Assembly (NCBI GenBank): GCA_903866355.1
Contig: CAIPNE010000714.1
Location: forward strand, 64,825 to 128,824
Reading direction: 5' to 3'
DNA: 64,000 nucleotides
DNA from: an uncultured Gammaproteobacteria bacterium
GTDB taxonomy: Bacteria > Pseudomonadota > Gammaproteobacteria > Ga0077536
Positions 42,630 through 62,210 of this stretch are shown piece by piece. The translations under genes and the position numbers were made by a program. Each line of letters begins with the position of its first letter. The stretch's first letter is position 1. Under the pieces are notes generated by a model. It was not told where the DNA came from. It was given only the letters and a program-made list of their open reading frames with translations, and did not search any database.

Positions 42630-43631
42630 CTACGCCTTGCGGAGGATAACTATGCCTCTCGGGTTTAGGATAGCTAGGCCAACGAGTTCGTCCATAACCC
42701 AGCCTTTGTGGAACTGTTCCACGTTATTGTTCTCTTCCACGTCGAGCGAGTACATGACGGGGAACACGCCCAAGAAGGACGGCTCCGGAGTCAGGTAGGT
42801 CGTACCCGGCGGGATGATGACGGACTTGCCGATCTGGAACTCACCGAACTGCACGATGCGCTCGCCAGCAACGACAGAGTCTTTGAACGCCCACCCTGTC
42901 GTATTGATGTCCCACCTGTAAAAATCCCGATATTCTGCGGGATTGCAGAGCAGGCGAGACGAATCCAGCAAACGCTGATCGGTGAAGGTGACCGCCGTGT
43001 AGAGGTCATCCGGCGACAGGTAGTTGCCTGCAACCTGGATTTCATTCGGCAGCGAGCCGGTACCGGGGACGGACGAGGAATCGACCAGACGATACTGTGC
43101 TGCGGCGACCTCCAGCAAAGTAATCAGGCGGCTATCTTCCTGCCGCATGATCGCCTGTTTCGTCATATCCTGGGCGTACTCAACCACGTTTGACCTCAGG
43201 TAATAGAGGTCTTCCTTCTTGATCTTCGGGAAGGCGGCGATGCGGAACAAGCTAACTGGCACACGTTTGCCCTCGAAGGGTGTGATTTTGACCTCACCCT
43301 CGTCGCCGTGGAGTAGGTAAGCCTGTCCTAAGTCGTCCAGAACGTCGTACTCAATGGGCACGCCGGGGGTCAGCGTGTCCTCCAGCAGGACGTTACGCAG
43401 GATGCCCTGGTAACGAAGCTGAAGCTGGATGGGGCCGATCATGGACTGGCCCAAGCGGACCATTCCGTTCTGGCGATCACCCAGGATGTTGGCGAGCTTG
43501 GACTGCTTCTCGCGGGCACTGAGCTTGCGACCACCCAGACGTGTCATCACGTTCTGGATATCAGCCACATACTCATCAGAGTGACGGGCAAGCCGACCGA
43601 AGCCGGAACCCGTAGCTACTGGGAGACTCAT
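42630..43631 (-). CDS. Major capsid protein (HK97-fold type, inferred)
   Basis: 333 aa. GGGAGGA precedes the ATG. A strong hairpin follows the gene. It lies downstream of the portal-protease block. A spine-helix-like segment FPKIKKEDLYYLRSNVVEYAQDMTKQAIMRQEDSRLITLL is present. Confidence 0.5.
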   Translation of the reverse strand: MSLPVATGSGFGRLARHSDEYVADIQNVMTRLGGRKLSAREKQSKLANILGDRQNGMVRLGQSMIGPIQLQLRYQGILRNVLLEDTLTPGVPIEYDVLDDLGQAYLLHGDEGEVKITPFEGKRVPVSLFRIAAFPKIKKEDLYYLRSNVVEYAQDMTKQAIMRQEDSRLITLLEVAAAQYRLVDSSSVPGTGSLPNEIQVAGNYLSPDDLYTAVTFTDQRLLDSSRLLCNPAEYRDFYRWDINTTGWAFKDSVVAGERIVQFGEFQIGKSVIIPPGTTYLTPEPSFLGVFPVMYSLDVEENNNVEQFHKGWVMDELVGLAILNPRGIVILRKA

Positions 43632-43646
43632 TTTTCTATTCCTCCC

Positions 43647-44174
43647 TTAGCTTCCGGCACCAAGGGTGACTGCACCCAGGTTGAAGCGGTTCAGACGGAT
43701 CAGGATTTTGTCGGTCGTCTCGACATCCAGAAGCTCCGCAATGGCGTTGGCGTTGGTAGCGCCGACCGGAGTGAGCTTGCCCTGAGCATTGCCGGTCAGC
43801 AGTTGCTGACCGCCGTTGGTCGGAGCGGTCCACGTTGCGGTGGTGTCGAAGGCCGGGGCCAGGATCTCAAACACAGCGTCGGAGTCACCGACCCAGACGG
43901 TGAAGAGGTTGGTCCCGGTTGCGGTGACCTCGTCAATGCCCAGGTTGGGCGCGACGAACAGAGCGGACAGACCAAAGGGCTTCTGGCCTGCTGCTCCAGT
44001 GAAGGGCGTGAAGATTTCGGCACTCTTGCGAGCCATGACCGTGCCGGGAAGAATGTCGAAGGACTTCGTCCAGGCCGGGTCGAGGAAACCACCCCACGTC
44101 GTAGCTTGATGCTGCGCGTAGATCGGTCGGATCGTACGCTTCTGCGACGGGTTGGTGATAGTTGCGCGGAACAT
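43647..44174 (-). CDS. Head decoration- or scaffold-position protein (beta-rich, hypothetical)
   Basis: 175 aa with a strong RBS GAAAGGAGG. It lies immediately upstream of the capsid gene. Confidence 0.4.
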   Translation of the reverse strand: MFRATITNPSQKRTIRPIYAQHQATTWGGFLDPAWTKSFDILPGTVMARKSAEIFTPFTGAAGQKPFGLSALFVAPNLGIDEVTATGTNLFTVWVGDSDAVFEILAPAFDTTATWTAPTNGGQQLLTGNAQGKLTPVGATNANAIAELLDVETTDKILIRLNRFNLGAVTLGAGS

Positions 44175-44205: not shown

Positions 44206-47200
44206 TTATTTGAAGAAGAGCAGTGAGTCACTGCTGGGATCATTGGCTGCAATCCGGTTGGTCTGGGCGGTGCGCTGACCACTTCCCAGTCCGCGAGGAA
44301 TGCTGGTCCCGCGAGAAACAGCAGCGGAACGCTGACGGTTGGCCGCAGAGCGGTCAACATCGTTCTTGGCTTCAAGAAGCCGGGTACGGTCCACCACAGT
44401 GGCGTGCCGCATGGTCTGGAACCGGGCGATCAGCTTCCACTTCTCGCTGGACGGAGCCAGACCGGCGTTGATGTATGCCTCAGCGCAACGAACCGCCGCG
44501 ACTGCATCAGCCGTCCGATTGGACGTTTTCTCGCCGCCGCCGGGTGCCCAGAACTGTGAATCCGTGCTGAGGTCGGGATCGGCAAGATTGTCACCGGCAT
44601 TGCTGCCGTAGTCAGACAAGTCGTACTGGCTTGCCTGAGCGTCGGCGTCGGTGACATCTTTGACGGGAGCTTCCACGTCGGCGCGTGCCATAGGCGCTGC
44701 GGTTTCCAGCGACTCATTGGCTTTGCGATTCATGGTGGCCTCCCTTGTGGTTTCAGCCTTTCTGGCCTCAACCAGAACCTTTTCCAGGGTGGGGAACAGA
44801 TTGCCCAGCGGAACTCCGGTGGCGCGGATGTAGCGAGCGGCCTCACGCCGGATGAAGTTGGCGTTGCCATGCTGGCGAGCCGTCTTTCCGGTCGAGCGAG
44901 CGAGCCAGTCATCGAAGGCGGCGAAAGCATGAATGCTCGCATCCTTCGGCTGAGTGGCGACGTTGTCCAGAGCGATGGAGTCGAAGTCGTCGCCCTTCAG
45001 GGACTGATCGTCGGTACCCGACAGGTCGGGGTTGACGGTCGTCGGCTCCACGATGTTGTCGCCTGCGAGGAAGCGCCGGAAACCCTGCTGCGTCGGACGC
45101 ACACCGGCTTGGCGGCACAGCGAGGCGTACTTGTTGGCGGCGGCGTGCTGAGGACCAGAAGGAGCAGTCGGCTCTCCGACCGTCACATCAATCGGGCCGA
45201 ATGTGCTGCCTCCGGTGTAGGGGTTGACAGCATCCGGACCAGCGGTGTCGAGGCTATGCTCGCCAGCCACCTTCTTCTGACGCAGACGAGCCAGTGCGGC
45301 AGCATCACGCCGAAGCTGATCGGTCCCACGCTGAACGCGGGCGACGAGAGTGTTCTCCGTGTTGGAAATGGAGTCACCGACAGTCGGGTTCACCAGTGCC
45401 TCTTCGGCAGGGGTCTGGCTCAGGAAGATCTCTTCCTGCGCACCCTGGTCATTGCGACCGTAGGGGCCACCATCGACGTGACCACTTTCGTCGGCATGCA
45501 GACGGCGACCACGGGATGCGACCTTCCCGCGTTCGGACAGGTTAATTCCCATGGAACGTCCTTTCTGTATCCTTCGTTCTTTCTTTTGCGAAGCGGTGTT
45601 TCTCACAGGGCGCTTCTTCCCTTTGGACGGTCGAGTCCAAAAGTTTTCTGTCGTACCTTGAATGAAATAGTCGATGCTGCCGGGGTCAGAGGGATCGCAG
45701 CCGTTCTTTTTGCAGAACTCCACATATGCCTGCTGGTCATCTTTGGCCGTGCGATAACGAGCTTCGATTTGGGGCGGCACGCTGGACGGATTGACCGGCT
45801 GCTCTTCCTCTTCGTACTCTTCTTCCGGTTCACCTTCGGCGTAGGGCTGGCTTTCTGCACCCATGTCGCCACCCATCGACGGATCAACAGGACCGCCGCC
45901 GTACAGTTCCGACTCTGCATAGGCCAGATCGCCTTGTGCCTGGTTGAGCAGAGCGAGTTCCTGCTCCGGTCCCATTTGACCCAGGTTGGGGTCCAGTGCA
46001 GGCTGGCCCATCGACGGATCGCCGCCCATCATCGACGGATCAACAGGAGCGCTGCCCATGTCCTCCGCGTAGCGATATCGGGGCATTTTTCTTCCTCCTT
46101 TGCGGGTCGGGATGCCGACCTCTTCAACATCCTCAACCCGCCGGTCGGCGTCGAGGCCCGCATCTTCCTGGGCACGGTCTAGCCGCTTAGCCTGGTCGAA
46201 GTCAGGGGTGCTTAACTCTTCGGGAGAATCCACATAGTGGTGGAAGTCGTCGCTTCCGTCGTCCTCCGACTGCTCGCGCAGAGTGTCAATATCTTCGGGA
46301 GCTTCAGTTTCCCCCCAGGCATAGCGGCGATTCGCGGCACGCATGATGTTGTTTCCTCCCGGCTGATACCAGATATGAACGTGATCCATGTGGTCTTGGG
46401 TTGCGTTTCCGGTATTACCGGCGCTGTAGGGGCTTGGATCGGCTCCATTCCCGTAGCCGTAAACTTGGTTATTCCAGATCAACCCATGCACATTAGGATC
46501 TTGAAGAGCCTGTTGCAGAACTCTGTCACCCGACTCAATATCGGGCACCATCACGTCGAGGGCACCGTTTTGATGCTCGCCATACTGGTCTGCTTCATGG
46601 TCACCGACAGTGAACCCTTGGTTTTCCCAGTGCGGCATCATCGAATGGGCAAAGTCTCTAGCGCTGCCGTCTCCGGTAACTCCACCACCGCTGCTGCTGC
46701 TACCGCCTCCACCGCCGCTAGTCCCGCCTCCACTGGACGATCCACCACCACCACCACCAGGATTGACCCAGCCTTCGCCGGGGGTGAGGTTGTACTGCGT
46801 CGGGGCTGACGGCATTCCTGTCATGTCACCCGGCGTCAGATCCTTCATGGTGGACATGGTCTTGTTTTCGTCTTCTTCATAAGCGGCTGCATACCGCCGC
46901 AAAGCATGGCGCTTAGCCATGTCGTAGCCTTGCTCGTACCGACCGCGAACGAAGTCTGCTTCTTGAGAGTTAAGGCCCTTTAATGCATCGGCCACATCGG
47001 GGTTTTCGTCGGCAGTATCCGAATCACCCCGGTCGTATGCTTGCCGACCGATATCTGACCAATCAACTTCAGAAGCACGATTAGCCGTCAGGAACTCAGG
47101 CTGAACCCGCAGGAACTCACGGAGCTTGCGCAGCCTCTTGTCCCTCTCCAGGTCGTCCAAGATCCTGTCAGGAATACTGCGCCGGTTCTTCTTCTTCTCC

Positions 47201-48165: not shown

Positions 48166-51100
48166 CTAGCCCTCCAGGTAGTGGGTTCCCCGAAGGTCAA
48201 GACCGGGGAGATTGCGGGCACCCTGCGGGTGCGCTTCGTCCATCAACTCTTGCTGCTCAGCCAGCGAGTAAACCCGGCCAGCCGTACGCAGGAAGCCTTG
48301 TGCAGCGTTGGCTATAGCGTCGTCGCTATAACCGCCGCCAGATATGGCACCGCCGCCTAAGGCTGTGTTGCCGATGTTGGCCTGGAACTGACGGACGATG
48401 TCGGAGCCGTCGTCGTAAGCCGCCTGCTTGGGCTGAACCTTGTAGTTGATGAGGTCGCTTTCCGGCTCATCCAACAGGTCGATGTAGTCGTGGTGGTTGT
48501 CCCACTCTTCGCTGGTGGAGAACCAGTCCTTACGAGACGGACCACTGCCTGCAAACGCGGGATCAACAGCACTGGAGTCATCGTTGAAGTTGCTGAGTTG
48601 GGAATCATCACCGTCTGCTACGACGCCTGCGGTAAGCAGGCCAGAAATACCGTTGCCGATAGCAGATCCGATGCCGGATGCAATGGGACCAAGGGTTTGG
48701 GTAACCATCGGTAGGACAGCACCGCCGACATCCTGCAAAATCGGCATTACATTGTTGAGAAAGAAGTCGCCGTCTAGTCCGCTACCCACTCCGCTAGTGG
48801 AATTGGCATTCTGCGGAAGATCTTCTTCCAGCTTCTTGCCGCCGTCAGACTGAACCGGCTGCTGCGGCTGACTCCGGTTGTTGAAGTTGTCCGTCGTGAT
48901 CTGAGGAAGAGGATCTACCCCACTAGACGGTGGGCCGGTAGGGGCCTGCTGCTGTGGCTGCTGAACAGGAACGGCTGGCTGCTGAGCGGCAGGCTGCTGC
49001 GGTTCGCCCGCCCCACTCAAGGCACCCAGATCTTCGTCTTCGTCGGCAAAAAAGTGACGGCTACCCTGGAATTGAGTCAGGCCAGGATTGCCAAGGGGTT
49101 GCCCTCCAGTGCCGGGTATCGCCGTATTCTCAAGGCCCGCCGAAGGCGTCGGGGGCATAGAGAAGCTGGTGCTGTTCGGCGGGCCAGGATCGGGGGCGTA
49201 GTCAGAAATCCCGTCAGCCGGGGCTGGGCCAGGGGCTGGAGGAACGCCTGGAGTTCCCGACGTAGGTGCAGAGCCACCAGGCTCAACCGGAGGCGGCTGG
49301 GTTCCTGTGTCGGGCGAATCAGCCGTTGCCGCCGGGGCACCGGGGATCTTCAGGGTGTCGTCGGCAAAGATCAAATCTTTGTTGGTGATCTGAGAGTTGC
49401 CACCCATCAGATCGTCAATGCCCACACCAGAACGCTCACTGATGCTGGTCAAGGTGTCACCGGACTGAATCTTGTAGTCACCGGCCCCAATGGCATCTTT
49501 GTTGCCGTTGGGGGACCAGTCGGAGCCACCGCCGCCACCACCGGCTGCGCCACCGCCACCAGTGCCAACGGGGGTTTCAGTCGCCGTGTTCTTGACCTCC
49601 GGACTACCACCGCCTAAATCCTTAAAAGCATCAGGATCAGAGCTTCCGGTTGGTGACGATGGAGCGTCTGGAGCGTCCTTGGGCTTGTTGTTGTAGTCGC
49701 CAGATCCTGTGGGGTTTAGCCGCGTAGGGGCGTCATCGTTATAGAACGGGTTCCGAAGGTCAAAGTTCTCCGTAAGAAAACCGTTGCCATTGTCGCGCTC
49801 AAAAGGGGAGCGGGTGCTTTGGCCTATCCAGTCGAAAAGATCACCTACAGGATCGGGCTTCTCTGCGGTGCGCCGCATAGCGACGAACAGGCTGGCGTCG
49901 TAGCCACGATCACGAAGCTCGCTGACGATTTCGGAGACTTCATGGTTACGCTCAGCCATATTCCCGAAGTTCTCAGCCGCCGGTTCAGCGCTGAGGTCGC
50001 GGAGTTTTTTTAGTAGATTCTCGTCAGCGGTGTAGGTCAGAGCTTCCTTGCGCATGCTGAAGCGGACGATGGGGGTGTCCTCGTCGTCCAGCTTGCCGTG
50101 GTTCTTGGCCCAGGACTTATCGACCTTGGCAGCTTTCTCCTGCCACGCATCGGTCCACCCTGGCCGCTTGTTCCCCTGAGCCTGATCCTTCATCACCTGT
50201 GCCCAGATTTTTGCGGTCATAGGGTCTTCAGGGTCGATGCCGTGGTGGTCGGCCCACTCCAGAAACTGGTTGGTGGCGACACCGGCTGTGATCTGATCCG
50301 GCCCGGTGGTCTTGCGCTCGTCCTTCTCCACGTCGATGGAGGTCGGATCTGCCGGATCGGGGATGCGGTACAGATCCGGCGACAGCCGGTCGGGCTTCCC
50401 TTGTGAACGCAGCGTGGGGTTGTCGTGGCCGTTGCCACCCTCCCAGACCTCATTGGGGTCGAAGGTGTAGCCGTCTACGTCGTAGTTACGCTGCGGACGC
50501 TCCGTGAAGTTGTCGTAGATGTAGTCGTAGACCTTTTTTGCATCTTCGGACGTAGGTTCGTCGTCAAGCTGAGACATGAAGGCGTCGGCTGACGGAAGAT
50601 CCACCACGCCCATGTTCACGTCACTCACCCAGGACTTGTAGTCCTCCAGCACACTGCCGCCGCGAGAGAGGAATCGGTCGTACGCCGATTCGGGGAGCAT
50701 TTCCCCCCGTGCAGAAGCACCAGGCTTGGGGAGCGAGGCCCAATAGCTCTCTGCATTCGGGAACTCGCTTTGTGCCGCTTCCGGCTTCGCGTTGATTTCC
50801 TGCTGGTACCAGTCCTTGGCCTTCGGGTGATCCGGCGCAATGTTATGGACTCGCAGGAACGTCTCGTACGGCAGCTTGCCGTCTGGACCCAGAAGGTGTT
50901 CGTCGTAGGCCAGCTTCTGCGAATGCCGGGACCGCGAACTGGGGCTGACCACAGGCAAGCTGCGGCGCGGCTTATTCTTCTTCGGCAGCTTCTGCTGGCG
51001 GGGCCTGCCGGTCTGGTGGGCCGACTGCATGGTGAAGTACGCGGCAAGGCCGTGGCTGCACAGACGGCCAACGAAGGTCTTCTTGCGCCGGAATGCCCAC

Positions 51101-52623
51101 TTACCCCACTCGCAGCCGCAATGCCATTGGTCGATGGAGTTCGACCCGGTCAAGCTGGCACCCTTGAAGATGACCACGTCGTAAGTGCCGTTGTCACCGA
51201 CCACCGACGCCATGATCCTGTTGGGGGCCATGTCCTTGACCGTTACCGCGCCGGAAGTCTTGAGGCGCATCGCTTTGGTCCGCACATCCGACCACGCCGC
51301 CTCGCGGATCATCGGATCGGCTTCCACCAGATCCATGTACTGGCCGACGCGAGGGTCCAGGCCGGTAGCCGACTCAATGATGTAGGCGGTGCGCTGGATG
51401 AAGGTGACCGGATCGGTGCGGAACTGATTCAACGGATCATTGGCAGCAGCCCGGTGAATCGGCAGGTCGATGTACTTATCGCTCAAACCGGCAGGGCGCT
51501 CTACAGAAGAGTGCCTCCTATTCGGGGAGTGGCACCACTCGCAATGCTCTTCGCCGTCATCTTCACCGAAGTCGCAGCCGTGTGTGTAGCAGCCTTCGTC
51601 AAGGAAGGCTTGGTCATCGTCACTACCTGCCGTGACGTAGATCGGCTCGTAGTTGTGCAGTGCCCGGTCGAAGAGTTCTTCGTCTCCGACATGCTTCTTG
51701 ACATACTCTTCGTAGCGCTTCTGCTCGCGGGGGTCGTCAAACTTCGGGGCGGGATGGGCAGCCAGCCAGTCCTCATCGTCCCAGACCTCTACCTCGTTGG
51801 GCAGAAGCATTTCCGGCTCCGGAGCTTTGCGGTGCTTGCCGGGATAGGCGGTGTGAATGCTAGCTCCGCGCTGGTTGAACTTGTCCAGCAGGCCGTAGCC
51901 GTCTACGCCGTGGGTTTTCCCGTACAGATTGGCGGTGGCATCCTGGTCAGGCTGAAGGCCAGCCTGCTGTGCCCACTGAACGTAGTGATTCATTGAGCCG
52001 GGGCGGGCGGTGCGGAGGCTGCCCTCGCGGAACGGAATTGCTTGGTGCATAGCCGGGATCGGATCGCCGTACTCATCAACGTGGCCCCATGTGCCGTCCG
52101 ACTCTTGAGTCAACTGCTCGCCGCACTCCTCGCAGCCAGATTCTGCCGACTCCCGGCTGCTGGTGGCGAACAGATGCGGGGCGGGGCCGGGGTAGGGGCC
52201 ACCCTCTTCGCTCTCGCCGGTCACAGAGTTAGTCGGCGTCATCCGCTCTTCCAGATCTACGTCGTGATCCGGAGTGATGGTCTGATCTTCTTCGTACATC
52301 TCAGTCGGGTGCTGAGGCTCGTAGTCGTAAGGCAGGGTGGTGGACATCGACTCGTCCACGTCGCCTAGAGCGCCAGCGCGAGTTCGGGTCAGCCAGGTTT
52401 TGCGGGTGTCTTCCGGCTGCTCCAGAAGCTCCTGACGGTACCCCTCATAGTCAGGCTCTTCACCCTCGCTGGAGTCCTCACTGGCTGCAATCTTCGTCTC
52501 GTCAATCCAGACGGAAAAGCCCTGACCGGCAACCTTGTACTGGGTACGGCCTCGCGTCGTCTCCGTATCGGTGACGGTACCGGGGCCGTGGGCAGTATGG
52601 ACGGCGCTGCCGATTTTAAGCAT
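48166..52623 (-). CDS. 1485-aa head-module protein with several Cys clusters, a SWIM-type zinc-finger motif (CxCx(n)CxH), a LysM domain and a long Pro/Gln-rich region
   Basis: AGGAGG precedes the ATG. The zinc-finger segment is ...DQWHCGCEWGKWAFRRKKTFVGRLCSHGLAAYF... The LysM-like segment is ...DYKIQSGDTLTSISERSGVGIDDLMGGNSQITNKDLIFADDTLKIPG... Another cluster reads CYTHGCDFGEDDGEEHCEWCH. Confidence 0.6.
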   Translation of the reverse strand: MLKIGSAVHTAHGPGTVTDTETTRGRTQYKVAGQGFSVWIDETKIAASEDSSEGEEPDYEGYRQELLEQPEDTRKTWLTRTRAGALGDVDESMSTTLPYDYEPQHPTEMYEEDQTITPDHDVDLEERMTPTNSVTGESEEGGPYPGPAPHLFATSSRESAESGCEECGEQLTQESDGTWGHVDEYGDPIPAMHQAIPFREGSLRTARPGSMNHYVQWAQQAGLQPDQDATANLYGKTHGVDGYGLLDKFNQRGASIHTAYPGKHRKAPEPEMLLPNEVEVWDDEDWLAAHPAPKFDDPREQKRYEEYVKKHVGDEELFDRALHNYEPIYVTAGSDDDQAFLDEGCYTHGCDFGEDDGEEHCEWCHSPNRRHSSVERPAGLSDKYIDLPIHRAAANDPLNQFRTDPVTFIQRTAYIIESATGLDPRVGQYMDLVEADPMIREAAWSDVRTKAMRLKTSGAVTVKDMAPNRIMASVVGDNGTYDVVIFKGASLTGSNSIDQWHCGCEWGKWAFRRKKTFVGRLCSHGLAAYFTMQSAHQTGRPRQQKLPKKNKPRRSLPVVSPSSRSRHSQKLAYDEHLLGPDGKLPYETFLRVHNIAPDHPKAKDWYQQEINAKPEAAQSEFPNAESYWASLPKPGASARGEMLPESAYDRFLSRGGSVLEDYKSWVSDVNMGVVDLPSADAFMSQLDDEPTSEDAKKVYDYIYDNFTERPQRNYDVDGYTFDPNEVWEGGNGHDNPTLRSQGKPDRLSPDLYRIPDPADPTSIDVEKDERKTTGPDQITAGVATNQFLEWADHHGIDPEDPMTAKIWAQVMKDQAQGNKRPGWTDAWQEKAAKVDKSWAKNHGKLDDEDTPIVRFSMRKEALTYTADENLLKKLRDLSAEPAAENFGNMAERNHEVSEIVSELRDRGYDASLFVAMRRTAEKPDPVGDLFDWIGQSTRSPFERDNGNGFLTENFDLRNPFYNDDAPTRLNPTGSGDYNNKPKDAPDAPSSPTGSSDPDAFKDLGGGSPEVKNTATETPVGTGGGGAAGGGGGGSDWSPNGNKDAIGAGDYKIQSGDTLTSISERSGVGIDDLMGGNSQITNKDLIFADDTLKIPGAPAATADSPDTGTQPPPVEPGGSAPTSGTPGVPPAPGPAPADGISDYAPDPGPPNSTSFSMPPTPSAGLENTAIPGTGGQPLGNPGLTQFQGSRHFFADEDEDLGALSGAGEPQQPAAQQPAVPVQQPQQQAPTGPPSSGVDPLPQITTDNFNNRSQPQQPVQSDGGKKLEEDLPQNANSTSGVGSGLDGDFFLNNVMPILQDVGGAVLPMVTQTLGPIASGIGSAIGNGISGLLTAGVVADGDDSQLSNFNDDSSAVDPAFAGSGPSRKDWFSTSEEWDNHHDYIDLLDEPESDLINYKVQPKQAAYDDGSDIVRQFQANIGNTALGGGAISGGGYSDDAIANAAQGFLRTAGRVYSLAEQQELMDEAHPQGARNLPGLDLRGTHYLEG

Positions 52624-52698
52624 GGGTGCTACCTCCTACCTTTTCTGGCAGGGCGTGGCAGCGGTTACAGGTTTAGATCCTGGTGAGAAGCCCTTGCG

Positions 52699-53038: not shown

Positions 53039-53314
53039 TTATGGGGCAGTGCAGACTTCATCGCTGTCGATAGGGTAGTTCTTAGTGTCCCGAATGGTGG
53101 TGGTTACAGAGCGGGACACCCAGCCGTAGCAGGACAGGAACTCGTCCTCATCGAAACCGATTTCTTCGGCAGTTTTGCGCAAGACCTGGAGCAGTAACCA
53201 TCGCTGCTGTTCGTCTTGAATGGGGTGCGTCCGGTATTCGTTCCATGCAACGGTTCCGTTGGGCAGGGATAGTCCGTACTCCGTACGGGCAGATATCACG
53301 TCGTCGTCACTCAC
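53039..53314 (-). CDS. Small acidic hypothetical protein
   Basis: 91 aa. It is ATGA-coupled to the portal gene. Confidence 0.4.
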   Translation of the reverse strand: MSDDDVISARTEYGLSLPNGTVAWNEYRTHPIQDEQQRWLLLQVLRKTAEEIGFDEDEFLSCYGWVSRSVTTTIRDTKNYPIDSDEVCTAP

Positions 53315-55713
53315 CAGCGGGGCCTCACTCCGGTTGCTTCCTCGTACTGCTCAACTAGCTCTTGCAGCAGCTTGCGGGATTCGGGTGCCCCGCCAGCCTG
53401 GATTTCCGGCCAGTCAGCACGAATCTGCGACTCGTAGCCAGCCATGCCGGTGATTGCATATGCTTCCGGATCTTCCACGATGTCACCAACCGACACGCCG
53501 CTAGCTCGCCGCCGGATCGCCTTTTCCACCCGCTTGGCGTCGGCAGTGCGAGCCTTACCGTAAGAGGACGGACCCTTTTCAAACTTTGTCAACGGTCGGT
53601 TGGTTCGCAAGGTAGACACCTTGGCACCCTTGGGCATGGCCCCTCGCTGCTCGTCAGACTCCACCGGACGCTGCCGGTTACGAGGAAGCTCAGTTACCGT
53701 TTCGGAAGCGTCCTCGACGCCGCCTGGGCCGCTGGACTTCGGGCCTTCTCCGTGTGGTCCGGTAGCCGCAGCTTTCTGTTGACCGCCCTCTTCTTCCGGC
53801 GGCGGTGGGGAGACGCCGGGGAGCAGACCCATCTGACCGGCAGGCGACATCTGCTTGATCTGCTGCTCCTGCATTTCGGCCTGACCTTCGACCATTTCGG
53901 TCTGGGCCAGCCCCTGACGCAATTGCAGTGTGGCTGACAGTGCTGCCACCAGATCGTCGGGGTACGGGATGCCTTGGGAGTCGCAAAGCGTTTGCAGCTT
54001 CGCCATAGCCTGCGCCTTCGCCAGACCTTTGGAGACAGTCTCTTCGGCCTGCATTTCCAGTTCCCGGCTGAACTCAATCGGAATGTTGACGGCCAGAGTG
54101 CCGTCCGACACCGGCACGCCCATCGACTTGAGTTGGGCGATGAACTGCCTTTCCTGAGCTTCGTCGCGCAGGTTGAGGGTAGCGAACTTAATTTCGGGCA
54201 GCAGCAGCTTGGGCACGCGGACGATTTCTTCTTCGCCAGTTTCCTCGTTGTACTGAACGATTTCCCGATAGATAGGAACCCTCAGCCCGCCCTTGAGTTC
54301 GTAATCGTAATGCTCCTGGGCTTCCGCGATGACCTCAGCCCGCTTCTGCATATGGCGAAGCACCTTCTTCTGGAAGGTGAGCATCAGTTGCTCGCAGACC
54401 TCGCGGTTCAGTGCGGAAGAGGCGTAAGTTCCACCGGCTCCGGAGCCGCCAGCAATAAGGGCCTGACCGATCCCCCACGCCTGAAGCAGCTTGGCGTCGA
54501 TGCGGTCGTAGTCCTGGTCGAATCGGGGAACAGCCTCCCGGCCAAACACCGACTGGACGTTTACACCAAAGTTGTGTACGAGCAGCTTGAAGTCAGCAGC
54601 CAGCGCGTTCTGCATATCGTCGCGCAAATCATCCAGTTCGCCCTGGTCCGGAATCCAGGGTTCGCCGTCGCCCATATTTTCGATGCCCATTGTCGCCAGG
54701 ATCAGCGGGGCGTAGAGCCTGTCTGCCACCGCATCCTGGGCCGCGTTGAGGCTTTCTTCCATCATCAACGTGCGGAAAGATCGCAGCAGATGAGGGGTTC
54801 CCCGCAGATCCCAGAAAGCAGCTTTGTTGACCAGGCGGGAGACGAGGGCATCGGAGATATCCAGGCCGTCATCCTGGGCAGCAGCCTTGACGATTTCGGG
54901 GTAGTGCTTGACTAGCTGCTGGTACTCCCAGGTGCGCTCCATGCGCTCACTGGGGGTTTCTTCCGACTCGCCGCCGCCGTTAGGTCCGGAGCGCAGATTC
55001 TCCACCAACTCCTTGACCATGAGTTGGACGCGCTCTTCCTGAACGAACAGCGACTTTGAGACGCGGACCATGTCGGGGTTGAGGATTTCTTCACTTGACC
55101 AGATACCCAGCGACTCATTGAAGTGAGCCAAGCTGGTGACCTCACCAACCGTGAAGTATTCCCGCCCCAGACCTTCAGACAGGAACTCTCCGTAGTTCAG
55201 ATCCTGCATGAACATTTGCTCGTAGAACTCTTGGATCTTCTTGTCGGTGGACTGGAACTCCAACCCGACAACCGGAAACTTGCTGTAGATGTCGATGAGC
55301 AGCGGCACCAAGTCGTGGGTCGTGTACCACAACCGGCACCACCGACGAAGCTCAGTTAGCTCTTTCGGATCTTGGACATTAAAGGGGATACCTTTGTCCT
55401 CTAGGCTAGAGAAGGGCTGCCGGATCTTTGGCATCGCCATTTGGACATTGGAGGCGGTTCGGGTCATTCCGGTAGTTGATCCCCGCACACTCGACATCTT
55501 CTGTCGGCGCATCTGTGCAGCCAACGCCTTGTTGGTGGAGTCGGTTACAGAGCCACGGGTGGCCGTATCTGCCACCTTCTTGGCTTCAATCCGTGCCTGG
55601 ACAGGAGAGTTAGGAAGGGTGTATCCGGCTTGGCGCAGCCTGCGCATTTCCGTTTCGGGATTGCCGACGTAAAAGTTCGATGACCGCCGGTCAGAGAAGG
55701 AGAAGTCACTCAT
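53311..55713 (-). CDS. Portal protein (large, with an acidic C-terminus; inferred from position and size)
   Basis: 800 aa. It is the first large gene of the portal-protease-capsid series. The C-terminal third is Glu/Gln-rich. No Walker motif is present, so it is not the terminase. Confidence 0.5.
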   Translation of the reverse strand: MSDFSFSDRRSSNFYVGNPETEMRRLRQAGYTLPNSPVQARIEAKKVADTATRGSVTDSTNKALAAQMRRQKMSSVRGSTTGMTRTASNVQMAMPKIRQPFSSLEDKGIPFNVQDPKELTELRRWCRLWYTTHDLVPLLIDIYSKFPVVGLEFQSTDKKIQEFYEQMFMQDLNYGEFLSEGLGREYFTVGEVTSLAHFNESLGIWSSEEILNPDMVRVSKSLFVQEERVQLMVKELVENLRSGPNGGGESEETPSERMERTWEYQQLVKHYPEIVKAAAQDDGLDISDALVSRLVNKAAFWDLRGTPHLLRSFRTLMMEESLNAAQDAVADRLYAPLILATMGIENMGDGEPWIPDQGELDDLRDDMQNALAADFKLLVHNFGVNVQSVFGREAVPRFDQDYDRIDAKLLQAWGIGQALIAGGSGAGGTYASSALNREVCEQLMLTFQKKVLRHMQKRAEVIAEAQEHYDYELKGGLRVPIYREIVQYNEETGEEEIVRVPKLLLPEIKFATLNLRDEAQERQFIAQLKSMGVPVSDGTLAVNIPIEFSRELEMQAEETVSKGLAKAQAMAKLQTLCDSQGIPYPDDLVAALSATLQLRQGLAQTEMVEGQAEMQEQQIKQMSPAGQMGLLPGVSPPPPEEEGGQQKAAATGPHGEGPKSSGPGGVEDASETVTELPRNRQRPVESDEQRGAMPKGAKVSTLRTNRPLTKFEKGPSSYGKARTADAKRVEKAIRRRASGVSVGDIVEDPEAYAITGMAGYESQIRADWPEIQAGGAPESRKLLQELVEQYEEATGVRPRW

Positions 55714-56068
55714 CTGCGGACACCTTCTCGCTGACCTTGGTCAGGCACGATTCGGTGTACCACAGCGTTTCGGGGACGGTTTCGTATGCCTTCTCTTCAA
55801 AGCGAACCAGGAAAGAGGGATGCACCCAGGTGCCGCCGTTCTTGAGGTCGGTAGAGACTTCCTCCACCACGCCGATACCGTCGTAGAGTTGCCCGCCGGT
55901 TCGGCACTCCACCCTGTCCCCCACCTTGAAGGGGACGGTGAGCGCCATGAAGTTCATGGCATATATAAGGTCACGCGGAACGAAGCATTTGTCGCAGTAC
56001 CCACGATCTAGCTCGTCGGTATGGACAATCCCCTTTAGCCTCTTGCAGGAGTAACAGACCTTCTTCAT
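55706..56068 (-). CDS. Zinc-ribbon plus KOW/SH3-like small protein
   Basis: 120 aa with CYSC...CDKC followed by FKVGDRVECRTGGQLYDGIGVV. Confidence 0.45.
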   Translation of the reverse strand: MKKVCYSCKRLKGIVHTDELDRGYCDKCFVPRDLIYAMNFMALTVPFKVGDRVECRTGGQLYDGIGVVEEVSTDLKNGGTWVHPSFLVRFEEKAYETVPETLWYTESCLTKVSEKVSADE

Positions 56069-57513
56069 GCCTTACCCGTCCAGCGCTGATTCTTGTCCCG
56101 CCGATGCCAGTCATCGGGAGTGGACTTCAGCTTATTGCCATTATCGGGATGATGGTCGGAAGGCCACGCATCAGTTGCAAAGTCCTCGCCGTCGTCGTCA
56201 TTCCCGACAGGCTTCTGCTGGAGAGCATCTAGCAGATTGGCCTTGCGCTCCTTGTCCATCTGCTTCTTGATGCCGTCAGGCAGGCATCCGGAACACCACT
56301 TCTGGCCGCGATGATCGACGGTCCCACTCAGGTCGTAGTCACGGATACCCTTGCCGCAGGCAGGGCAGGAGTCCTTGGCGGCTTGGCGCATAGCCTTGCG
56401 GTGGCCGTCGCACTTCCGGCAGGAGCCTTCGGCGCACGGCTTGGTGCCGGGGACGCGCTCGTAGCCTTCCCAGCATTCGCACTTACCTTTGGCTTGATGC
56501 TTCCGACTCAGCCGCATCTTGCCCTTCTGGTCAAGATTGCGCACATACTCGTTGTACTCCTGAGAGAAGCTGCGGCGCTCCTCTTCGGGGAGCCGATTAA
56601 AAGCGTTATGGTCGAGGTTCTTGTCAGGATGCGTCAGTCTCAGCCAACGCTCAAAACCGACACCCGAAGCCAGTTCCTCTTCGGAAGCTGTTCGCTTCTT
56701 ATTCGCCACGATGACGTTATCCCTGACCGGAACCTCACGGCACAGGTACTTCTCGACGGCAGCCTGACGGTTCTCCCCGCCGGTACCGATGACGTAGGAG
56801 TTCCAGATCTTGCCGCACTTGCAGTTATGGTAGCCGGGAACCGACAGCTTGGCCCCGCACTTGCACATAAAGCTATCGGGCGTTTCGGTAGCAACGTACG
56901 CCGACAGCCGCTGGTTCCATTCCCAGCCGTCTACGTTGTGCTGACGAGAAGCCTGAACCGGACCCCAGCCCGTCCAAGCCTGCTTTTTCTGGCGGCGCTC
57001 TTCGTCTTTGCGCTTCTTGTAGAAGTACGGGTTTTCGGTGTGCTGGTTTTTAGAGCGATCTACCTGCTTCTTGCGCTCTTCAAACAGCTTGTACCAGCCG
57101 TCATGGACTTCAGCGCTGCGCTGACCACCAAAGAGATACCGGCGTAGCTGGCTGACGCCGCGCTCTCCGATACCGTATTCGCTGGCGAAGTCGTAGAGGT
57201 CTTTGTCTCCACCAATACCTAGCTGACCCTGCTGGGCACGCTGCTGTACCCACTGCTGCCACTTATCGAACATAGAGGCTTCGCGGTACTGACCAGGCTT
57301 TTTACCCGGCCCGTGATGACGGCTCAAAGCATTAAGTAAACGCTCTGCACAATTCCGGCAAAACCCGGTAGGCCCCAACAGCTTGAGGTCTATGGTTCCT
57401 TCAGCGGGTTTGCCGCACAGGTTCTGGCAGTTTCCCAAGTCCTCACCAGCGGTGCGGCTTAGCCTTTTGGGTAACCACGCTCCGTTTCGACAGAGGCGCG
57501 GAAGTCCATCCAC
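56065..57513 (-). CDS. Basic cysteine-rich protein with multiple zinc-ribbon motifs
   Basis: 482 aa with a GTG start. Its first 55 nt overlap the 3' end of the upstream 797-aa gene. Cys clusters include CRNG..NCQNLC..FCRNC, CKCGAKL..CKCGKIW and CECWEGY..CAEGSCRKCDGH..CPACGKG..CSGC. The protein is Arg/Lys-rich. Confidence 0.5.
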   Translation of the reverse strand: MDGLPRLCRNGAWLPKRLSRTAGEDLGNCQNLCGKPAEGTIDLKLLGPTGFCRNCAERLLNALSRHHGPGKKPGQYREASMFDKWQQWVQQRAQQGQLGIGGDKDLYDFASEYGIGERGVSQLRRYLFGGQRSAEVHDGWYKLFEERKKQVDRSKNQHTENPYFYKKRKDEERRQKKQAWTGWGPVQASRQHNVDGWEWNQRLSAYVATETPDSFMCKCGAKLSVPGYHNCKCGKIWNSYVIGTGGENRQAAVEKYLCREVPVRDNVIVANKKRTASEEELASGVGFERWLRLTHPDKNLDHNAFNRLPEEERRSFSQEYNEYVRNLDQKGKMRLSRKHQAKGKCECWEGYERVPGTKPCAEGSCRKCDGHRKAMRQAAKDSCPACGKGIRDYDLSGTVDHRGQKWCSGCLPDGIKKQMDKERKANLLDALQQKPVGNDDDGEDFATDAWPSDHHPDNGNKLKSTPDDWHRRDKNQRWTGKA

Positions 57514-59852
57514 TCCTTGTCGTCGTGGCCTTCGCCGCCGTCCTCTTCTTCGGACTCTTCGTCGTACTCTTCGGGGCCGAAGTCATCGTCGTAATAGTTG
57601 CCCTCTTCGGCAGACATCTGGTCGAGGTAATCCTCAAACCGGGCTTCTGCTCCACCGATAATCGGCTCGCCTTCTTCGTTGAAGTAGCGACTTTCGGCAA
57701 CCCGGCGACGGCCTTCGTACAGGGAGTCGTGACCGTGTACGTCGTGAACTTGCGGGCCGTCCCAGTAGGCAGGATCAACCTCTTCTTCGTGACCGTCATC
57801 CCCAATGCCGTGATACAAAAACTCAATGGCTTCGGGATCACCTTGGTCGGCCAGATGATTGAGGGTGTCCCACAACTCCGTAGCCTTGAGGTCATCGGGG
57901 TCGATGTACTTGTACTCTTCGATGAGTTCGGCGGTCTGGCTGGCGTACCGGCGACGGCGAGCCTGCATCTGCATCTGCTGGGCGATTTCCGGCGGGAGCG
58001 CACCCTGACCGGCGGCTGCCGGGGGAGGACCACCAGGAGCGGCACCACCCATAGCGGACGGATCGACGCCGCCCTGACCCATCAGTTGCGCCAGCATGGC
58101 CGGATCAATCTGGCCGGAAGCCGGATCGACTCCCTGCGGTGCCGGTCCCTGCGGAGCCTGGGTCTGAGGAAGGACGTTGACGGTGCCAGCCGGGGGCATG
58201 ACATTCATCGGGTTCTGTGCCTGCTGAACCTGCTCCGCGTACTGGATGGTCTGGAGCGCCTGCTGCAACGGCTGGATGGACTCTTGGAACTCTTCGGCCT
58301 TCTCATTGAGCAGGTTGGTGATCGCCTCATCGGCCTGCATGAGGTAGTCCTTGCCAGCAGCGGTACGGCGAGCTTGGTACTCCATAAGGCCCAGGTCCAA
58401 AGGCTCCTTGACGTTAGACATACCATCGGGGAACAGGCCGCTAGTGCCAGCCATGGGGTTGACCGCTGGTGGTGTGTAGGGGTTGGTGAGGTTATTGATG
58501 TTGACGCCACCGATTTCCGGCGCTGAGCCACCAGGAACCTCAGCGTGACGCTGAAGAGCAGCGGTCAGGATGAAGTACTCCTTGTCGGGGCGGTTAACGG
58601 CGTAGTACTCCAGCGTCCTAGCAGACGGGCGGGCCAGGTTATCCACGCACCACTGGGCGTACCGCTTGATGATTGCTGCGGTAACCGCACCGCTACCTGC
58701 GCCAGGAATGCCAGATCCGCTGGTGCCGGGTACCGGGGGCGGGGCAGCGGGGTCGGTCGGCGTCATCCCCGAAGCATCGGGAGCAGCCGGGGCGGTGGTA
58801 GGGGGATATCCCATCATTTCATTGGCCTGACGGCGGGCATGCTTGCCCGAATCCCCGCCGGGGGTGAAGTTGCTGCTTGGCGGGCCGTCGTATCCGTTCT
58901 GGGAGACGGAATCCAGGTAGCCGTGGAAGTCGCCTTCCGGAATCAGATCGTCGTCGGACGGCTGGAAGGTCGCGTCGATGTCCTGCACCGGGCCGGTGGT
59001 GTCGGCCTGACGGCGACGAGACTCCTTGTTGCCGGAAGCGCCTTCCCACTTACCATCGGTGTCGGGGAAAGGCTTGGCCTTCGGACGAGGGGGCTTCTCG
59101 TCATTGGTCATCATTTCCCGGTAGGCATCCAACTCGTCGCCGGAATAGGCCACCCGGCTGGCGCGACGGTTGACTAAGCCCTTCAGTTCGTCCTTGATGC
59201 GCTTGGCTTCCGGCCCACGCCAGGTACCGGCGTTGGAGAGGAAGTAGTTGACGATGTGCTTGGCCGGATCTTGGTAGTACATATCATCGACGCTCTCCAG
59301 TTCGTGGAGGGCATCCAGATACGGCTGAGCGGCGAAGTTGACCTTCGGCCAGTTGCGCTTGATGTCCCGCGCAATCTCATGCAGCGGACGAGGGCCTTGC
59401 TGCTGCCGCTGAGCCTTGGCGTCCAGTATGTCGCCAACAGTGCCCAGGCTGGGCATATCTGGCGAGTGAACGTCCCAGTCCTTCAGGTCGCCTTCGTAGT
59501 CTTCCTTCTCAAAGTCAGGATGATCGACGGGGTCGAAGTCGGGGCTACTCTCGTCGCGGGGGTCGCCCTTAGCAATCCGCTCACGCCACTCGCGCTCCAT
59601 GGTCTTGCAGACCTTGCGCATCACGCCGGTCACCGGCATCAGGTGGGCGTTGACCGTTCGGATCATGTCGTCTTTGCACAGGGCGACCCGGTCGTGGAAC
59701 TCTTCCTTGGTCTTGGCGCAGAACAGGTGTGCCCCGTACTGCTCCCGCACGTCGTAGATCGCAGCGGCCAGCTTGTCGGTCGCGGCCTGCTTGGCGATCT
59801 TCTGCTCAGAATCCGAAGCTACAAGCGCCTCAAATGCGGTGATGTCAGACAC
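57459..59852 (-). CDS. 797-aa hypothetical protein with Pro/Gln/Ala-rich low-complexity segments
   Basis: A GTG start follows GGAAG. The protein has an acidic C-terminal tail (...EEYDEESEEEDGGEGHDDKEW...). Confidence 0.5.
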   Translation of the reverse strand: MSDITAFEALVASDSEQKIAKQAATDKLAAAIYDVREQYGAHLFCAKTKEEFHDRVALCKDDMIRTVNAHLMPVTGVMRKVCKTMEREWRERIAKGDPRDESSPDFDPVDHPDFEKEDYEGDLKDWDVHSPDMPSLGTVGDILDAKAQRQQQGPRPLHEIARDIKRNWPKVNFAAQPYLDALHELESVDDMYYQDPAKHIVNYFLSNAGTWRGPEAKRIKDELKGLVNRRASRVAYSGDELDAYREMMTNDEKPPRPKAKPFPDTDGKWEGASGNKESRRRQADTTGPVQDIDATFQPSDDDLIPEGDFHGYLDSVSQNGYDGPPSSNFTPGGDSGKHARRQANEMMGYPPTTAPAAPDASGMTPTDPAAPPPVPGTSGSGIPGAGSGAVTAAIIKRYAQWCVDNLARPSARTLEYYAVNRPDKEYFILTAALQRHAEVPGGSAPEIGGVNINNLTNPYTPPAVNPMAGTSGLFPDGMSNVKEPLDLGLMEYQARRTAAGKDYLMQADEAITNLLNEKAEEFQESIQPLQQALQTIQYAEQVQQAQNPMNVMPPAGTVNVLPQTQAPQGPAPQGVDPASGQIDPAMLAQLMGQGGVDPSAMGGAAPGGPPPAAAGQGALPPEIAQQMQMQARRRRYASQTAELIEEYKYIDPDDLKATELWDTLNHLADQGDPEAIEFLYHGIGDDGHEEEVDPAYWDGPQVHDVHGHDSLYEGRRRVAESRYFNEEGEPIIGGAEARFEDYLDQMSAEEGNYYDDDFGPEEYDEESEEEDGGEGHDDKEWMDFRASVETERGYPKG

Positions 59853-60725: not shown

Positions 60726-62210
60726 CTAGAGGAACAGAGCTTCAGAGGGCAATGATGCAGCACGATCCAGTGCAGGTCTGCTGGCACTCCGCAGCAGGGC
60801 GATGTGATTACTCCGCTGGGTAGCACCATCGACCACCCTCTGAACGAAGGCTGTCGTAATGGTTCGGGAGCGGTCTACGGAGTAGGACGAAGTTGCCTTC
60901 TGCGCGTAGTGCATAGCGCGGGTTCCAAGCTCACGGGCATCGTTGGTGTCGATGTTGTCGGCCAGGAACCGGCTGGACTCCAGGGTGACGTAGCGCCGGT
61001 CTTGGGGGGATAGGCCCCCTTTGCGTGGCCCGCCTCGCACAATTGCGTCGGCTAATTCTCTCAAGCCTTCGTTGCGCTGGTCCTCGCCACGCTGGACGTT
61101 TTCCGGCGAGAACTCTTCCAGGTACTCAGCGATCACGTCAGGATCGGTGCGCAGTTCATGCGGTGTGCGGTCGAACCGACCCTCATCAGCCCAGTGACCT
61201 GAACCTTCGGTGCAGTTATCTCCCGGCTTAGACCCACACTCAGGGCACTCAATACTGCGCCACTCAGATCCGGCAGCCTTTTTGTCCCAGCCCTTTTCGG
61301 AGTCGGCAGCTTCCCACGGAGCTAGACCATCATGCTCTTCTTTGAGGGAACCGGCAGCCTCTTTGTAGACCTCTTCCTCTTCCCCACCCTTGAACTCTTC
61401 TTCGTCGCCGCAGTTACCTTTCTTGCGACGATCCCGTTCGGCCTTCTCTTCCCGTGCCTGGGATTCGGGAACGTAGGGATCTAGGCCGGTGCGGTCGATG
61501 TACTCCTGCAACCGCTGATCGCGCTGCTTCGTCAGTTCACGCCACCGGGCACGGTCTTCGGCATCCGGCTCCAGACCGTAGTCGGAGAACCAGTCACCGT
61601 CTCCGTAGTAGATATCGCCATGCTCCCCACCCTCAGTGCGGGGAGTGAAGTGCGGATCTGTGCCACGCGGGGCTGGCATAGCGATGCGCCGACGCGCCTC
61701 TTTGCCTTCGCCCTTGCGATCCCGCTTTAGGCGTTCTTCTAGGTCTTTCCCGCCGGGGCCGCGCTTCCATTTCTTGCCCCACTCCTGGGACTCTTCGTCG
61801 TCGTCTTCGTCGGCAAGCTCGTTGTAGATGTCCCAGCCAACCGGGTTGCCGTCATCGTTGGTTTTGCCGCCCCAGTCTCCATAGCTTCCTGCCGCGATGT
61901 GAACTCCGGCGATGGGCGAGGTATCCTCACGGTCATAGGCCCCGGTCAGCAGATCCTCGCGGAGAGCGACGAGGGCGCGAGCATCGGTTTCCAGTTCGGC
62001 CAGCCGGTGCAACGGCCCGACCTCAGCGCCACGGCGAGCAACGTGAGTACGAGCAATGTTCATCAGTCGGCGGCACTGGGCCAGCCGGTTGTCGATGGAG
62101 AACGGGGTGCCGTCAAACCAGGAATCCGTCGCGGCAGCGTACTTCTTGTGGGCGGTATCGAAGCTGGCGGCGGTCGCCCGGTCGTCAATGGATCGGCTAT
62201 TGGTAAACAT
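60726..62210 (-). CDS. 494-aa highly charged hypothetical protein with one Cys4 zinc-ribbon (CPECG...C)
   Basis: The ORF is Glu/Asp/Arg/Lys-rich and contains ...IECPECGSKPGDNCTEGSGHW... No NTPase motifs are present. Confidence 0.45.
   Translation of the reverse strand: MFTNSRSIDDRATAASFDTAHKKYAAATDSWFDGTPFSIDNRLAQCRRLMNIARTHVARRGAEVGPLHRLAELETDARALVALREDLLTGAYDREDTSPIAGVHIAAGSYGDWGGKTNDDGNPVGWDIYNELADEDDDEESQEWGKKWKRGPGGKDLEERLKRDRKGEGKEARRRIAMPAPRGTDPHFTPRTEGGEHGDIYYGDGDWFSDYGLEPDAEDRARWRELTKQRDQRLQEYIDRTGLDPYVPESQAREEKAERDRRKKGNCGDEEEFKGGEEEEVYKEAAGSLKEEHDGLAPWEAADSEKGWDKKAAGSEWRSIECPECGSKPGDNCTEGSGHWADEGRFDRTPHELRTDPDVIAEYLEEFSPENVQRGEDQRNEGLRELADAIVRGGPRKGGLSPQDRRYVTLESSRFLADNIDTNDARELGTRAMHYAQKATSSYSVDRSRTITTAFVQRVVDGATQRSNHIALLRSASRPALDRAASLPSEALFL

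Follow-up and report, generated by a model that had tools for sequence, protein, structure and literature searches.

What does a giant protein with a SWIM-type zinc-finger signature and a LysM domain do among the head genes of a contractile-tailed phage? The question is raised by a 1485-amino-acid (aa) protein encoded in a 64,000-nucleotide stretch of contig CAIPNE010000714.1 (assembly GCA_903866355.1); we refer to the whole of this stretch as the window. The window is a previously unsequenced contractile-tailed relative of the cluster C mycobacteriophages (Ceeclamvirinae), similar to Bxz1 and Myrna. We consider it likely that the 1485-aa protein is packaged inside the head near the portal. 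The full chain of events, in which a capsid-internal minor head protein is ejected as pilot or cargo and then engages the host envelope, is a plausible proposal that we put at somewhat short of an even chance.

The gene has a strictly conserved place in the head module. In the window, the portal gene lies upstream of it, and the genes for the protease fusion, the capsid cement protein and the major capsid protein (MCP) lie downstream, in line with the head-module position that an initial annotation of this DNA had given the protein. In all 47 related viral contigs from IMG/VR, as far as each contig reaches, the gene lies between the portal gene and the genes for the protease (or protease-scaffold), cement and MCP, all on one strand. 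The order portal, LysM-like gene, protease (or protease-scaffold), cement and MCP is also found in phages Delylah, Skog, E3 and I3. The same gene order recurs in relatives with a low guanine-plus-cytosine (GC) content that encode a 411-aa form of the protein.

The composition and modules of the protein suggest what it could do from there. Approximately 70-80% of the chain is disorder-like in composition and the whole is acidic; such a mostly disordered, acidic chain fits transit through a tail tube. We infer ejection because the LysM domain, a glycine-rich stretch and a wall-hydrolase motif in the neighbouring protein make sense only at the envelope. Furthermore, searches of Pfam, NCBIfam, PHROGs and PDB found no enzymatic or secretion-related family in the 1485-aa protein, no dedicated signal-peptide predictor having been run. 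With no signal peptide or enzyme domain recognised, the LysM could therefore meet peptidoglycan only via delivery by the virion.

The open reading frame (ORF) itself is genuine. Its ATG start is preceded by a GGAGG ribosome-binding site, and several independent metagenome assemblies yielded the identical protein, on 11 contigs of up to 149.6 kb. Because the identical protein occurs on 11 independent contigs, the ORF is neither split nor misassembled. Some details of the initial annotation need adjusting. The protein was called the largest in the window; its ORF is the largest complete one, but an ORF of at least 1713 aa at 1-5139 is cut by the window edge. It was placed right after the portal-region genes; the portal gene is indeed upstream, but two small ORFs (91 and 82 aa) sit between the two. 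Lastly, the reported ATGA junction with the protease fusion does not exist, the TAG stop being separated by tcg from the GTG start of the next ORF.

Fixed frame and optional modules of two giant head proteins

Judging from its sequence, the 1485-aa protein belongs, as a diverged member, to what is annotated in cluster C phages as the “LysM-like peptidoglycan binding protein” family. It matches phrog_2940 (E=1e-102) and phrog_30974 (E=2e-84), neither of which has an assigned function, and tblastn places the family in 224 sequenced phages (210 Mycobacterium, 9 Gordonia, 4 Rhodococcus and 1 Mycolicibacterium). Named homologues in cluster C-type actinobacteriophages comprise those of Bixzunavirus (Delylah gp99, Catera gp93, Spud gp96 and I3 gp102), Myrna (B5LJA0), Gordonia phages (Skog gp157 and Pupper gp93) and Rhodococcus phages (E3 gp76 and Finch). 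GenBank names for the family are “hypothetical protein”, “LysM-like peptidoglycan binding protein” and, in Skog and Tonenili, “LysM-like endolysin”, while UniProt lists the Finch homologue as a SWIM-type domain-containing protein. The initial annotation had called the combination of a myovirus-type tail with podovirus-style head cargo unusual. The tail is as described, with sheath, tape measure and baseplate proteins all encoded in the window; “unusual” overstates the case, since the gene is kept and already annotated in about 224 sequenced cluster C-type myophages.

The 1485-aa protein has the same N-terminal domain and C-terminal motif as the named homologues, and its gene occupies the same site between those for the portal and the protease-scaffold. 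The SWIM core, also shared, is 52-55% identical to theirs over 168 aa. Against sequenced phages, tblastn identity reaches at most approximately 48%, is patchy and covers no more than 28% of the query. A Megablast search with the gene as query returned zero matches among 50,697 phage records, and relatives were found at the protein level only. The protein measures 1485 aa versus 603-1276 aa in named relatives, and carries additional Cys-cluster inserts. The family, its annotation and its SWIM and LysM labels are already known from public records. What is new is the family-wide anatomy, with its fixed frame and four-fold length range, the minimal 411-aa form, the apparent inteins inside the SWIM motif, and the link to a neighbour that bears a tape-measure-type motif.

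An alignment of 102 homologues reveals a fixed frame that consists of the N-terminal domain, acidic linear motifs, the SWIM core with its basic tail, short motifs and the C-terminal region (Table 1). LysM, the Pro/Gln linker and the glycine-rich hydrophobic stretch are optional additions, and lengths across the family lie between 411 and about 1900 aa. The minimal form, of 411 aa, comes from IMG/VR contigs from human-microbiome samples with 43-44% GC (L048:9644-10879 and L049-L052). It contains the N-terminal domain, the linear motifs, SWIM, the basic tail and the C-terminal GTHY motif, and nothing more. This shows that the family reaches beyond high-GC actinophages. As LysM is optional in the family and absent from the minimal homologues, it is to the N-terminal domain, SWIM core and C-terminal motif that the conserved function must belong.

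The SWIM core is the sole basic part of the protein (pI 9.1). The initial annotation had recognised a good SWIM signature in it, a reading that the residue pattern and predicted fold support but the Pfam score does not fully bear out. The pattern CxCx6-25CxH arose in only 2 of 20000 shuffles of the protein, and the ligands of the putative zinc finger (C502, C504, C522 and H524) do not vary in 30 relatives or in another 33. Pfam SWIM (PF04434), the sole family match in the core region, scores 12.5 bits and thus falls below the cut-off of 19.6. Weak matches to the same family occur at E<=1 in 18 of the 30 relatives (best 0.0013), and the score of the 411-aa homologue is 19.3 bits. Residues 378-545 yield a confident AlphaFold2 model, with a predicted local distance difference test score (pLDDT) of 80.8 and a predicted template modelling score (pTM) of 0.76; its best structural match is ZSWIM8, indicating a SWIM-like fold. 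A profile sequence search of the core against PDB gave chance-level matches only. The basic tail that follows the core is also present in the 411-aa homologue.

SWIM domains elsewhere bind DNA or protein. The core shares with known SWIM proteins (ZSWIM8, Shu2/SWS1, MuDR-type transposases and bacterial SNF2-associated proteins) the same CxCxnCxH signature and the fold of a preceding beta-strand plus helix. It differs from them in its phage head-module setting, its sub-threshold Pfam score and the lack of a helicase, kinase or transposase domain. The initial annotation had also pointed to further Cys clusters. These are present (C164/C167 and C345/C350/C361/C364) but lineage-specific, their alignment columns being filled in few relatives.

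Inteins (Hint plus LAGLIDADG) occur in relatives P0009, P0012, P0037 and P0089, and in 3 of the 33 sequences of another relative alignment. In P0009 and P0012, homology to the family stops at the Cys of the motif's C-S-H half and unrelated sequence follows. Pfam marks an intein (Hom_end_hint) in both proteins, and this intein appears to interrupt the SWIM motif at that second-half Cys. Inteins are usually placed at functionally critical sites. The published intein surveys that we searched do not mention an extein of the SWIM-LysM family by name.

LysM and inteins are the only Pfam domains among the 102 homologues (precomputed) and 33 diverse full-length relatives (scanned). The suggestion of a multi-domain “polyvalent” effector therefore finds no footing, as Pfam, NCBIfam, PHROGs and PDB returned no enzyme or effector domain for the 1485-aa protein. 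Polyvalent proteins reportedly combine several effector domains in one injected polypeptide, a concept said to come from Iyer et al. in 2017. Fusions to toxin or ADP-ribosyltransferase domains, envisaged for related phages, were likewise absent by Pfam from the 102 homologues and 33 relatives, and neither the 1485-aa protein nor the 33 relatives match Pfam MuF (PF04233).

The LysM assignment of the initial annotation holds. The domain matches Pfam LysM with E=5.7e-9 and 36.2 bits, above the cut-off of 20.9 and across profile positions 1-43 of 43, and LysM proteins in PDB match the same region (e.g., Ecp6, E=4e-7). Its binding to peptidoglycan is a prediction. Pfam detects LysM in 20 of the 33 diverse full-length relatives and not in the E3, Skog or 411-aa homologues; LysM is not a defining feature of the family. 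The Pro/Gln-rich segment of more than 150 aa that had been noted is also real, with 32% P+Q versus 13% for the whole protein. In general, the linkers between the fixed blocks are acidic and enriched in disorder-promoting residues.

Beyond the linker lies an uncharged, glycine-zipper-like stretch that may interact with a membrane. Its maximum Kyte-Doolittle hydropathy is 1.43 over 19 aa, and a weak match (E=0.005) links it to V-ATPase proteolipid subunit K. Half to most relatives have such a stretch: among 165 full-length ones, at least 82 contain an uncharged run of 25 aa or longer, and GxxxGxxx[GAS] occurs in 79 of those 82. A similar glycine-rich stretch is present in the tape measure protein of the window.

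Both ends of the protein are conserved in ways that suggest binding to partners. The N-terminal domain (residues 1-45) has no Pfam or PDB match; we considered a CarD/TRCF Tudor-like RNA-polymerase-interacting domain and dropped it for lack of Pfam or PDB profile support. The invariant linear motifs that follow, in residues 81-160, are probably docking motifs. At the other end, all 38 complete homologues from viral contigs (411-1734 aa) terminate in [GN]THY. A C-terminal profile ends at, or a few residues before, the C-terminus in 150 of 150 among the matches listed. AlphaFold2 predicts no independent fold for the C-terminal 203 residues (pLDDT 48.9, pTM 0.16), and the conserved blocks there are probably motifs that fold on partner binding rather than a domain. 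Hidden Markov models of the N- and C-terminal regions matched only the 1485-aa protein among 666 six-frame ORFs of the window, and no shared capsid-targeting signal was found. Core and C-terminal profile searches of a 5.8-billion-protein set returned short fragments only.

The downstream neighbour is a second giant head protein of 1318 aa. Its N-terminal part (residues ~55-210) is a prohead protease (phrog_18299). Phages with the 411-aa form encode the protease (343 aa) and a coiled-coil scaffold-like protein (448 aa) in two distinct genes, which shows the 1318-aa neighbour to be a protease-scaffold fusion. Residues ~500-607 of the fusion resemble a segment from the interior of tape measure proteins of Mycobacterium and Gordonia siphoviruses (Frankie, Hlubikazi, SG4 and others), with identity reaching 59%. 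On this similarity, the segment appears to be a peptidoglycan-hydrolase motif of the TM4 Tmp motif-3 type. Piuri and Hatfull reported that motif 3 of TM4 Tmp hydrolyses peptidoglycan and helps infect stationary-phase cells, and also placed motif 3 in Bxz1 gp95 (PMC1796659). Other fusions carry a different insert: a PF25735 “Phage L5 gp82” domain is inserted in those of Delylah (L001:11928-15788), Skog (L002:10704-13952) and I3 (L005:11928-16154), and is missing from the 1318-aa fusion of the window. Because relatives of the fusion carry different inserts, both giant head proteins behave as carriers with exchangeable inserts.

A short module, [YF]-[VLA]-x-[WFL]-[AC]-x-x-x-G-[ILVC]-x-P-x-[DQ] (e.g., FLEWADHHGIDPED and YVEFCKKNGCDPSD), is repeated within the variable parts of the two giant head proteins, at residues ~212-226 and ~786-800 of the 1485-aa protein and ~809-823 and ~1011-1025 of its neighbour. 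We rejected the idea that the two proteins are paralogues, as their internal similarity amounts to this one short repeated module.

A proposed role in the virion weighed against other roles

In the proposal that we prefer, packaging followed by ejection, the terminal motifs would anchor the protein within the procapsid by docking on the inner wall of the capsid, on the portal or on the protease-scaffold. Its SWIM core and the tail behind it, both basic, would bind the portal or the packaged DNA. Once the sheath has contracted, the chain would exit unfolded via the tail tube, either together with the DNA or before it. LysM could then grip the peptidoglycan of mycolic-acid bacteria and the glycine-rich stretch associate with the cytoplasmic membrane, while the hydrolase motif of a co-packaged protease-scaffold fusion would widen the passage. 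LysM and the glycine-rich stretch were, we infer, acquired in phages of mycolic-acid bacteria.

The main rival holds that the protein is an assembly-only core or scaffold accessory. On the portal, it would help to nucleate the large capsid or to set its size, with the C-terminal motif binding capsid protein or scaffold in the manner of scaffold tails, and would then be degraded by the adjacent protease, its fragments being expelled before or during DNA packaging without ever reaching the host envelope. In every locus the gene lies immediately upstream of the protease and scaffold genes, the invariant motif at the extreme C-terminus does not fold alone, the acidic disordered composition is typical of scaffolds, and the 411-aa homologues lack a wall-directed module. 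Furthermore, Myrna-type capsids are large, and such capsids often need internal cores; the Myrna capsid has an inner diameter of 81 nm (PMC7150772). We nevertheless judge this role rather unlikely. It leaves unexplained why most long relatives keep LysM, and at a conserved place, why there is a glycine-rich hydrophobic stretch, and why a co-assembled neighbour carries a tape-measure-type wall-hydrolase motif; a basic zinc finger with intein interruptions is also unlike usual scaffolds. If the protein were an assembly scaffold only, the result would be an ordinary one. Alternatively, the protein might be a non-virion, intracellular SWIM-based factor that binds DNA or protein for genome handling, packaging initiation or counter-defence and is merely sited in the head block. 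The DNA- or protein-binding habit of SWIM domains, the fold match and the basic core all agree with such a factor, as does the presence of non-structural genes (ThyX and RNA ligase) interspersed in the same interval of relatives. These metabolic genes come and go, however, whereas adjacency to portal and protease is strict across a wide divergence. LysM would have no obvious cytoplasmic ligand, and conserved terminal docking motifs combined with four-fold length plasticity are atypical of enzymes or regulators. We regard this explanation as improbable.

An adhesin attached to the outside of the head or neck is less probable again. Decoration and fibre proteins do occur on phage capsids, the protein has a LysM, and its long flexible linkers could act as a tether. 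In mycolic-acid bacteria, however, peptidoglycan is buried below arabinogalactan and mycomembrane, and on intact cells an external LysM could not reach it. Relatives have a separate head fibre gene (Delylah gp105), the cement protein has been identified, and the 411-aa homologues lack LysM. In addition, the description of Myrna gives no additional capsid-surface density of this protein's size (PMC7150772). The explanation we believe least is that of a lysis accessory or endolysin. It draws on the GenBank name of the Skog and Tonenili homologues and on two matching PHROG families labelled transglycosylase and endolysin. These two matches are restricted to the LysM portion (residues 1044-1110), Pfam, NCBIfam and PDB searches detect no catalytic domain in the 1485-aa protein or 33 relatives, and the gene lies in the head module rather than in a lysis cassette. 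Because the PHROG matches are to LysM only and no catalytic domain is detectable, the name “endolysin” is wrong.

Several observations weigh against packaging followed by ejection. Our search of the literature found no proteomic, structural or genetic data that put a family member in virions or in the envelopes of infected cells. The GenBank record of E3 labels gp70 and gp78 “structural protein” and its homologue gp76 merely “LysM-like protein”, which is weak negative evidence. Both LysM and the glycine-rich stretch are missing from the 411-aa homologues, and LysM is undetected in those of E3 and Skog; as the modules are missing from the minimal homologues, envelope engagement cannot be the ancestral function. 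The glycine-rich region of many relatives has interspersed Asp, a feature unfavourable to a classical transmembrane helix. The tail already has lysin-like domains of its own, in the proteins encoded at 1-5139 and 13352-16189. The extreme C-terminal motif, beside a protease-scaffold gene, suits an assembly-only scaffold accessory equally well. Finally, Pfam and PHROG searches, and hhalign against SPP1 gp7, found no homology to a known ejection protein family.

Likeness to known ejected and tape measure proteins

Three groups of known phage proteins offer parallels. SPP1 gp7/MuF minor head proteins are portal-bound, DNA-binding and ejected, and MuF proteins often have fused cargo domains. The 1485-aa protein resembles them in its gene position after the portal gene in the head module, in its conserved anchor with variable modules and in its proposed action. 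Unlike them, it has a SWIM anchor and lacks toxin or enzyme cargo, and there is no homology between the two (hhalign probability 0.2%, nothing by BLASTP, no Pfam MuF match). With the podovirus ejection (internal core) proteins, gp14, gp15 and gp16 of T7 and gp7, gp16 and gp20 of P22, it shares the proposed storage in the head, ejection, and engagement of peptidoglycan and membrane that aids the crossing of DNA; a likeness to podophage internal core proteins had already been suggested in the initial annotation. It has no sequence or profile similarity to these proteins in Pfam or PHROG, and its virion is contractile-tailed, with a tape measure protein and lysin domains in the tail. The wall module here is a LysM binding domain rather than a transglycosylase, and ejection here is a proposal. 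A very long chain with small cell-wall modules and glycine-rich hydrophobic stretches is reminiscent of mycobacteriophage tape measure proteins such as TM4 Tmp with its motif 3. Unlike those, the gene lies in the head module and has no tape-measure homology except via its neighbour. We rejected a tape measure role for the 1485-aa protein itself on account of this location and of the window's own, separate tape measure gene.

How large myoviruses pass their DNA across the mycobacterial envelope is poorly understood. This envelope comprises the mycomembrane, arabinogalactan, peptidoglycan and the cytoplasmic membrane. If packaged and ejected, the family would be a head-borne component of envelope penetration in a contractile-tailed phage, and its SWIM anchor would be a new, non-MuF way of attaching cargo at the portal. 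A still wider proposal, which we regard as somewhat doubtful, is that the capsid as well as the tail delivers tools for crossing the envelope. The two giant disordered head proteins would then be length-expandable carriers with docking ends and swappable modules that are ejected to span the unusually thick envelope, and SWIM would replace MuF/gp7 as a new type of portal or DNA anchor. The swappable modules would be LysM, the tape-measure-type hydrolase motif, the L5 gp82-like domain and glycine-zipper segments.

The family is abundant: its C-terminal profile matches 755 clusters (50% identity) among 1.84 billion representatives, and no sequenced cluster C-type phage lacks the gene. Experiments on the family are feasible, as Bxz1, I3, Myrna and many SEA-PHAGES isolates can be cultured and engineered.

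The head module and neighbouring genes

Table 1. Features of the 1485-aa protein, its gene and its surroundings, by position in the window.
Feature	Residues	Position	Strand	Details
Portal protein gene		53311..55713	-	upstream of the 1485-aa gene
Ribosome-binding site GGAGG of the 1485-aa ORF		52632..52636	-	8 nt 5' of the ATG
Complete ORF of the SWIM-LysM head-module protein	1-1485	48166..52623	-	1485 aa, 161 kDa, isoelectric point (pI) 4.6, ATG start
Conserved small N-terminal domain (HTxxGxG...RGR..YKVAG.GF.VW.DE)	1-45	52489..52623	-	alignment conservation
Acidic region with invariant linear motifs NSTxLPY..PQ, IDxxERxxPxxS, PGPxPxLFA (in the family alignment also IDxDERLxPxDS, PGPxPDLFA)	81-160	52144..52383	-	
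Lineage-specific acidic insert	161-377	51493..52143	-	two Cys clusters and one Y-V-x-W-A-x-x-x-G-L-x-P module
Conserved core: helical bundle and SWIM-type zinc-finger domain (putative)	378-540	51004..51492	-	
SWIM signature CGCEWGKWAFRRKKTFVGRLCSH (CxCx17CxH)	502-524	51052..51120	-	
Strongly basic tail (RPRQQKLPKKNKPRRS...) after the SWIM core	541-570	50914..51003	-	
Conserved linear motif ending TTGPDQI	741-780	50284..50403	-	alignment
Conserved segment	860-920	49864..50046	-	alignment
LysM domain (PF01476)	1050-1094	49342..49476	-	Pfam and PDB matches
Pro/Gln-rich low-complexity linker	1097-1260	48844..49335	-	164 aa
Uncharged Gly/Ala/Ile/Leu stretch (GIGSAIGNGISG), glycine-zipper-like	1299-1336	48616..48729	-	
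Conserved C-terminal region (FAGSGP, SDIVRxFQA, invariant RTAGRxYSxAEQxxLxxE..GAxNL..LDLxGTHY)	1361-1485	48169..48543	-	
Prohead protease and scaffold-like fusion, 1318 aa		44206..48162	-	starts 3 nt past the TAG stop of the 1485-aa gene
Tape-measure-type motif inside the fusion	~500-607 of the fusion	46342..46665	-	phrog_6090 match
Capsid cement (minor capsid) protein		43647..44174	-	PF23968
Major capsid protein		42630..43631	-	83% identity to the MCP of Mycobacterium phage Myrna
Tail sheath gene		22150-23727		
Tape measure protein gene		17775-20120		phrog_2836

Two structural proteins of the tail contain endolysin-like regions. The ORF of at least 1713 aa that runs off the window start (1-5139, minus strand) encodes a minor tail protein (phrog_2840) that is endolysin-like in residues 125-361 (phrog_102). 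A 945-aa virion structural protein (13352-16189, minus strand; phrog_2810) is endolysin-like in residues 317-445 (phrog_700) and is probably a baseplate or tail-tip lysin.

On the other side of the head module, just upstream of the portal region, two overlapping ORFs on the minus strand, 56065-57513 (482 aa) and 57459-59852 (797 aa), both match phrog_2922. In relatives, the phrog_2922 protein is encoded by one gene (Delylah gp91, 1237 aa; I3 gp94, 1169 aa), and a neighbour of 121-123 aa stands between this gene and the portal gene. The phrog_2922 gene of Rhodococcus phage E3 is labelled “structural protein” and flagged as a pseudogene. The two-ORF state near 57459-57513 could be caused by a frameshift, by programmed recoding or by a real split. 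Further upstream, a 494-aa protein (60726-62210, minus strand) has a sub-threshold match in residues 317-356 to PF24623, a putative DNA-binding phage zinc finger (E=1.8e-4).

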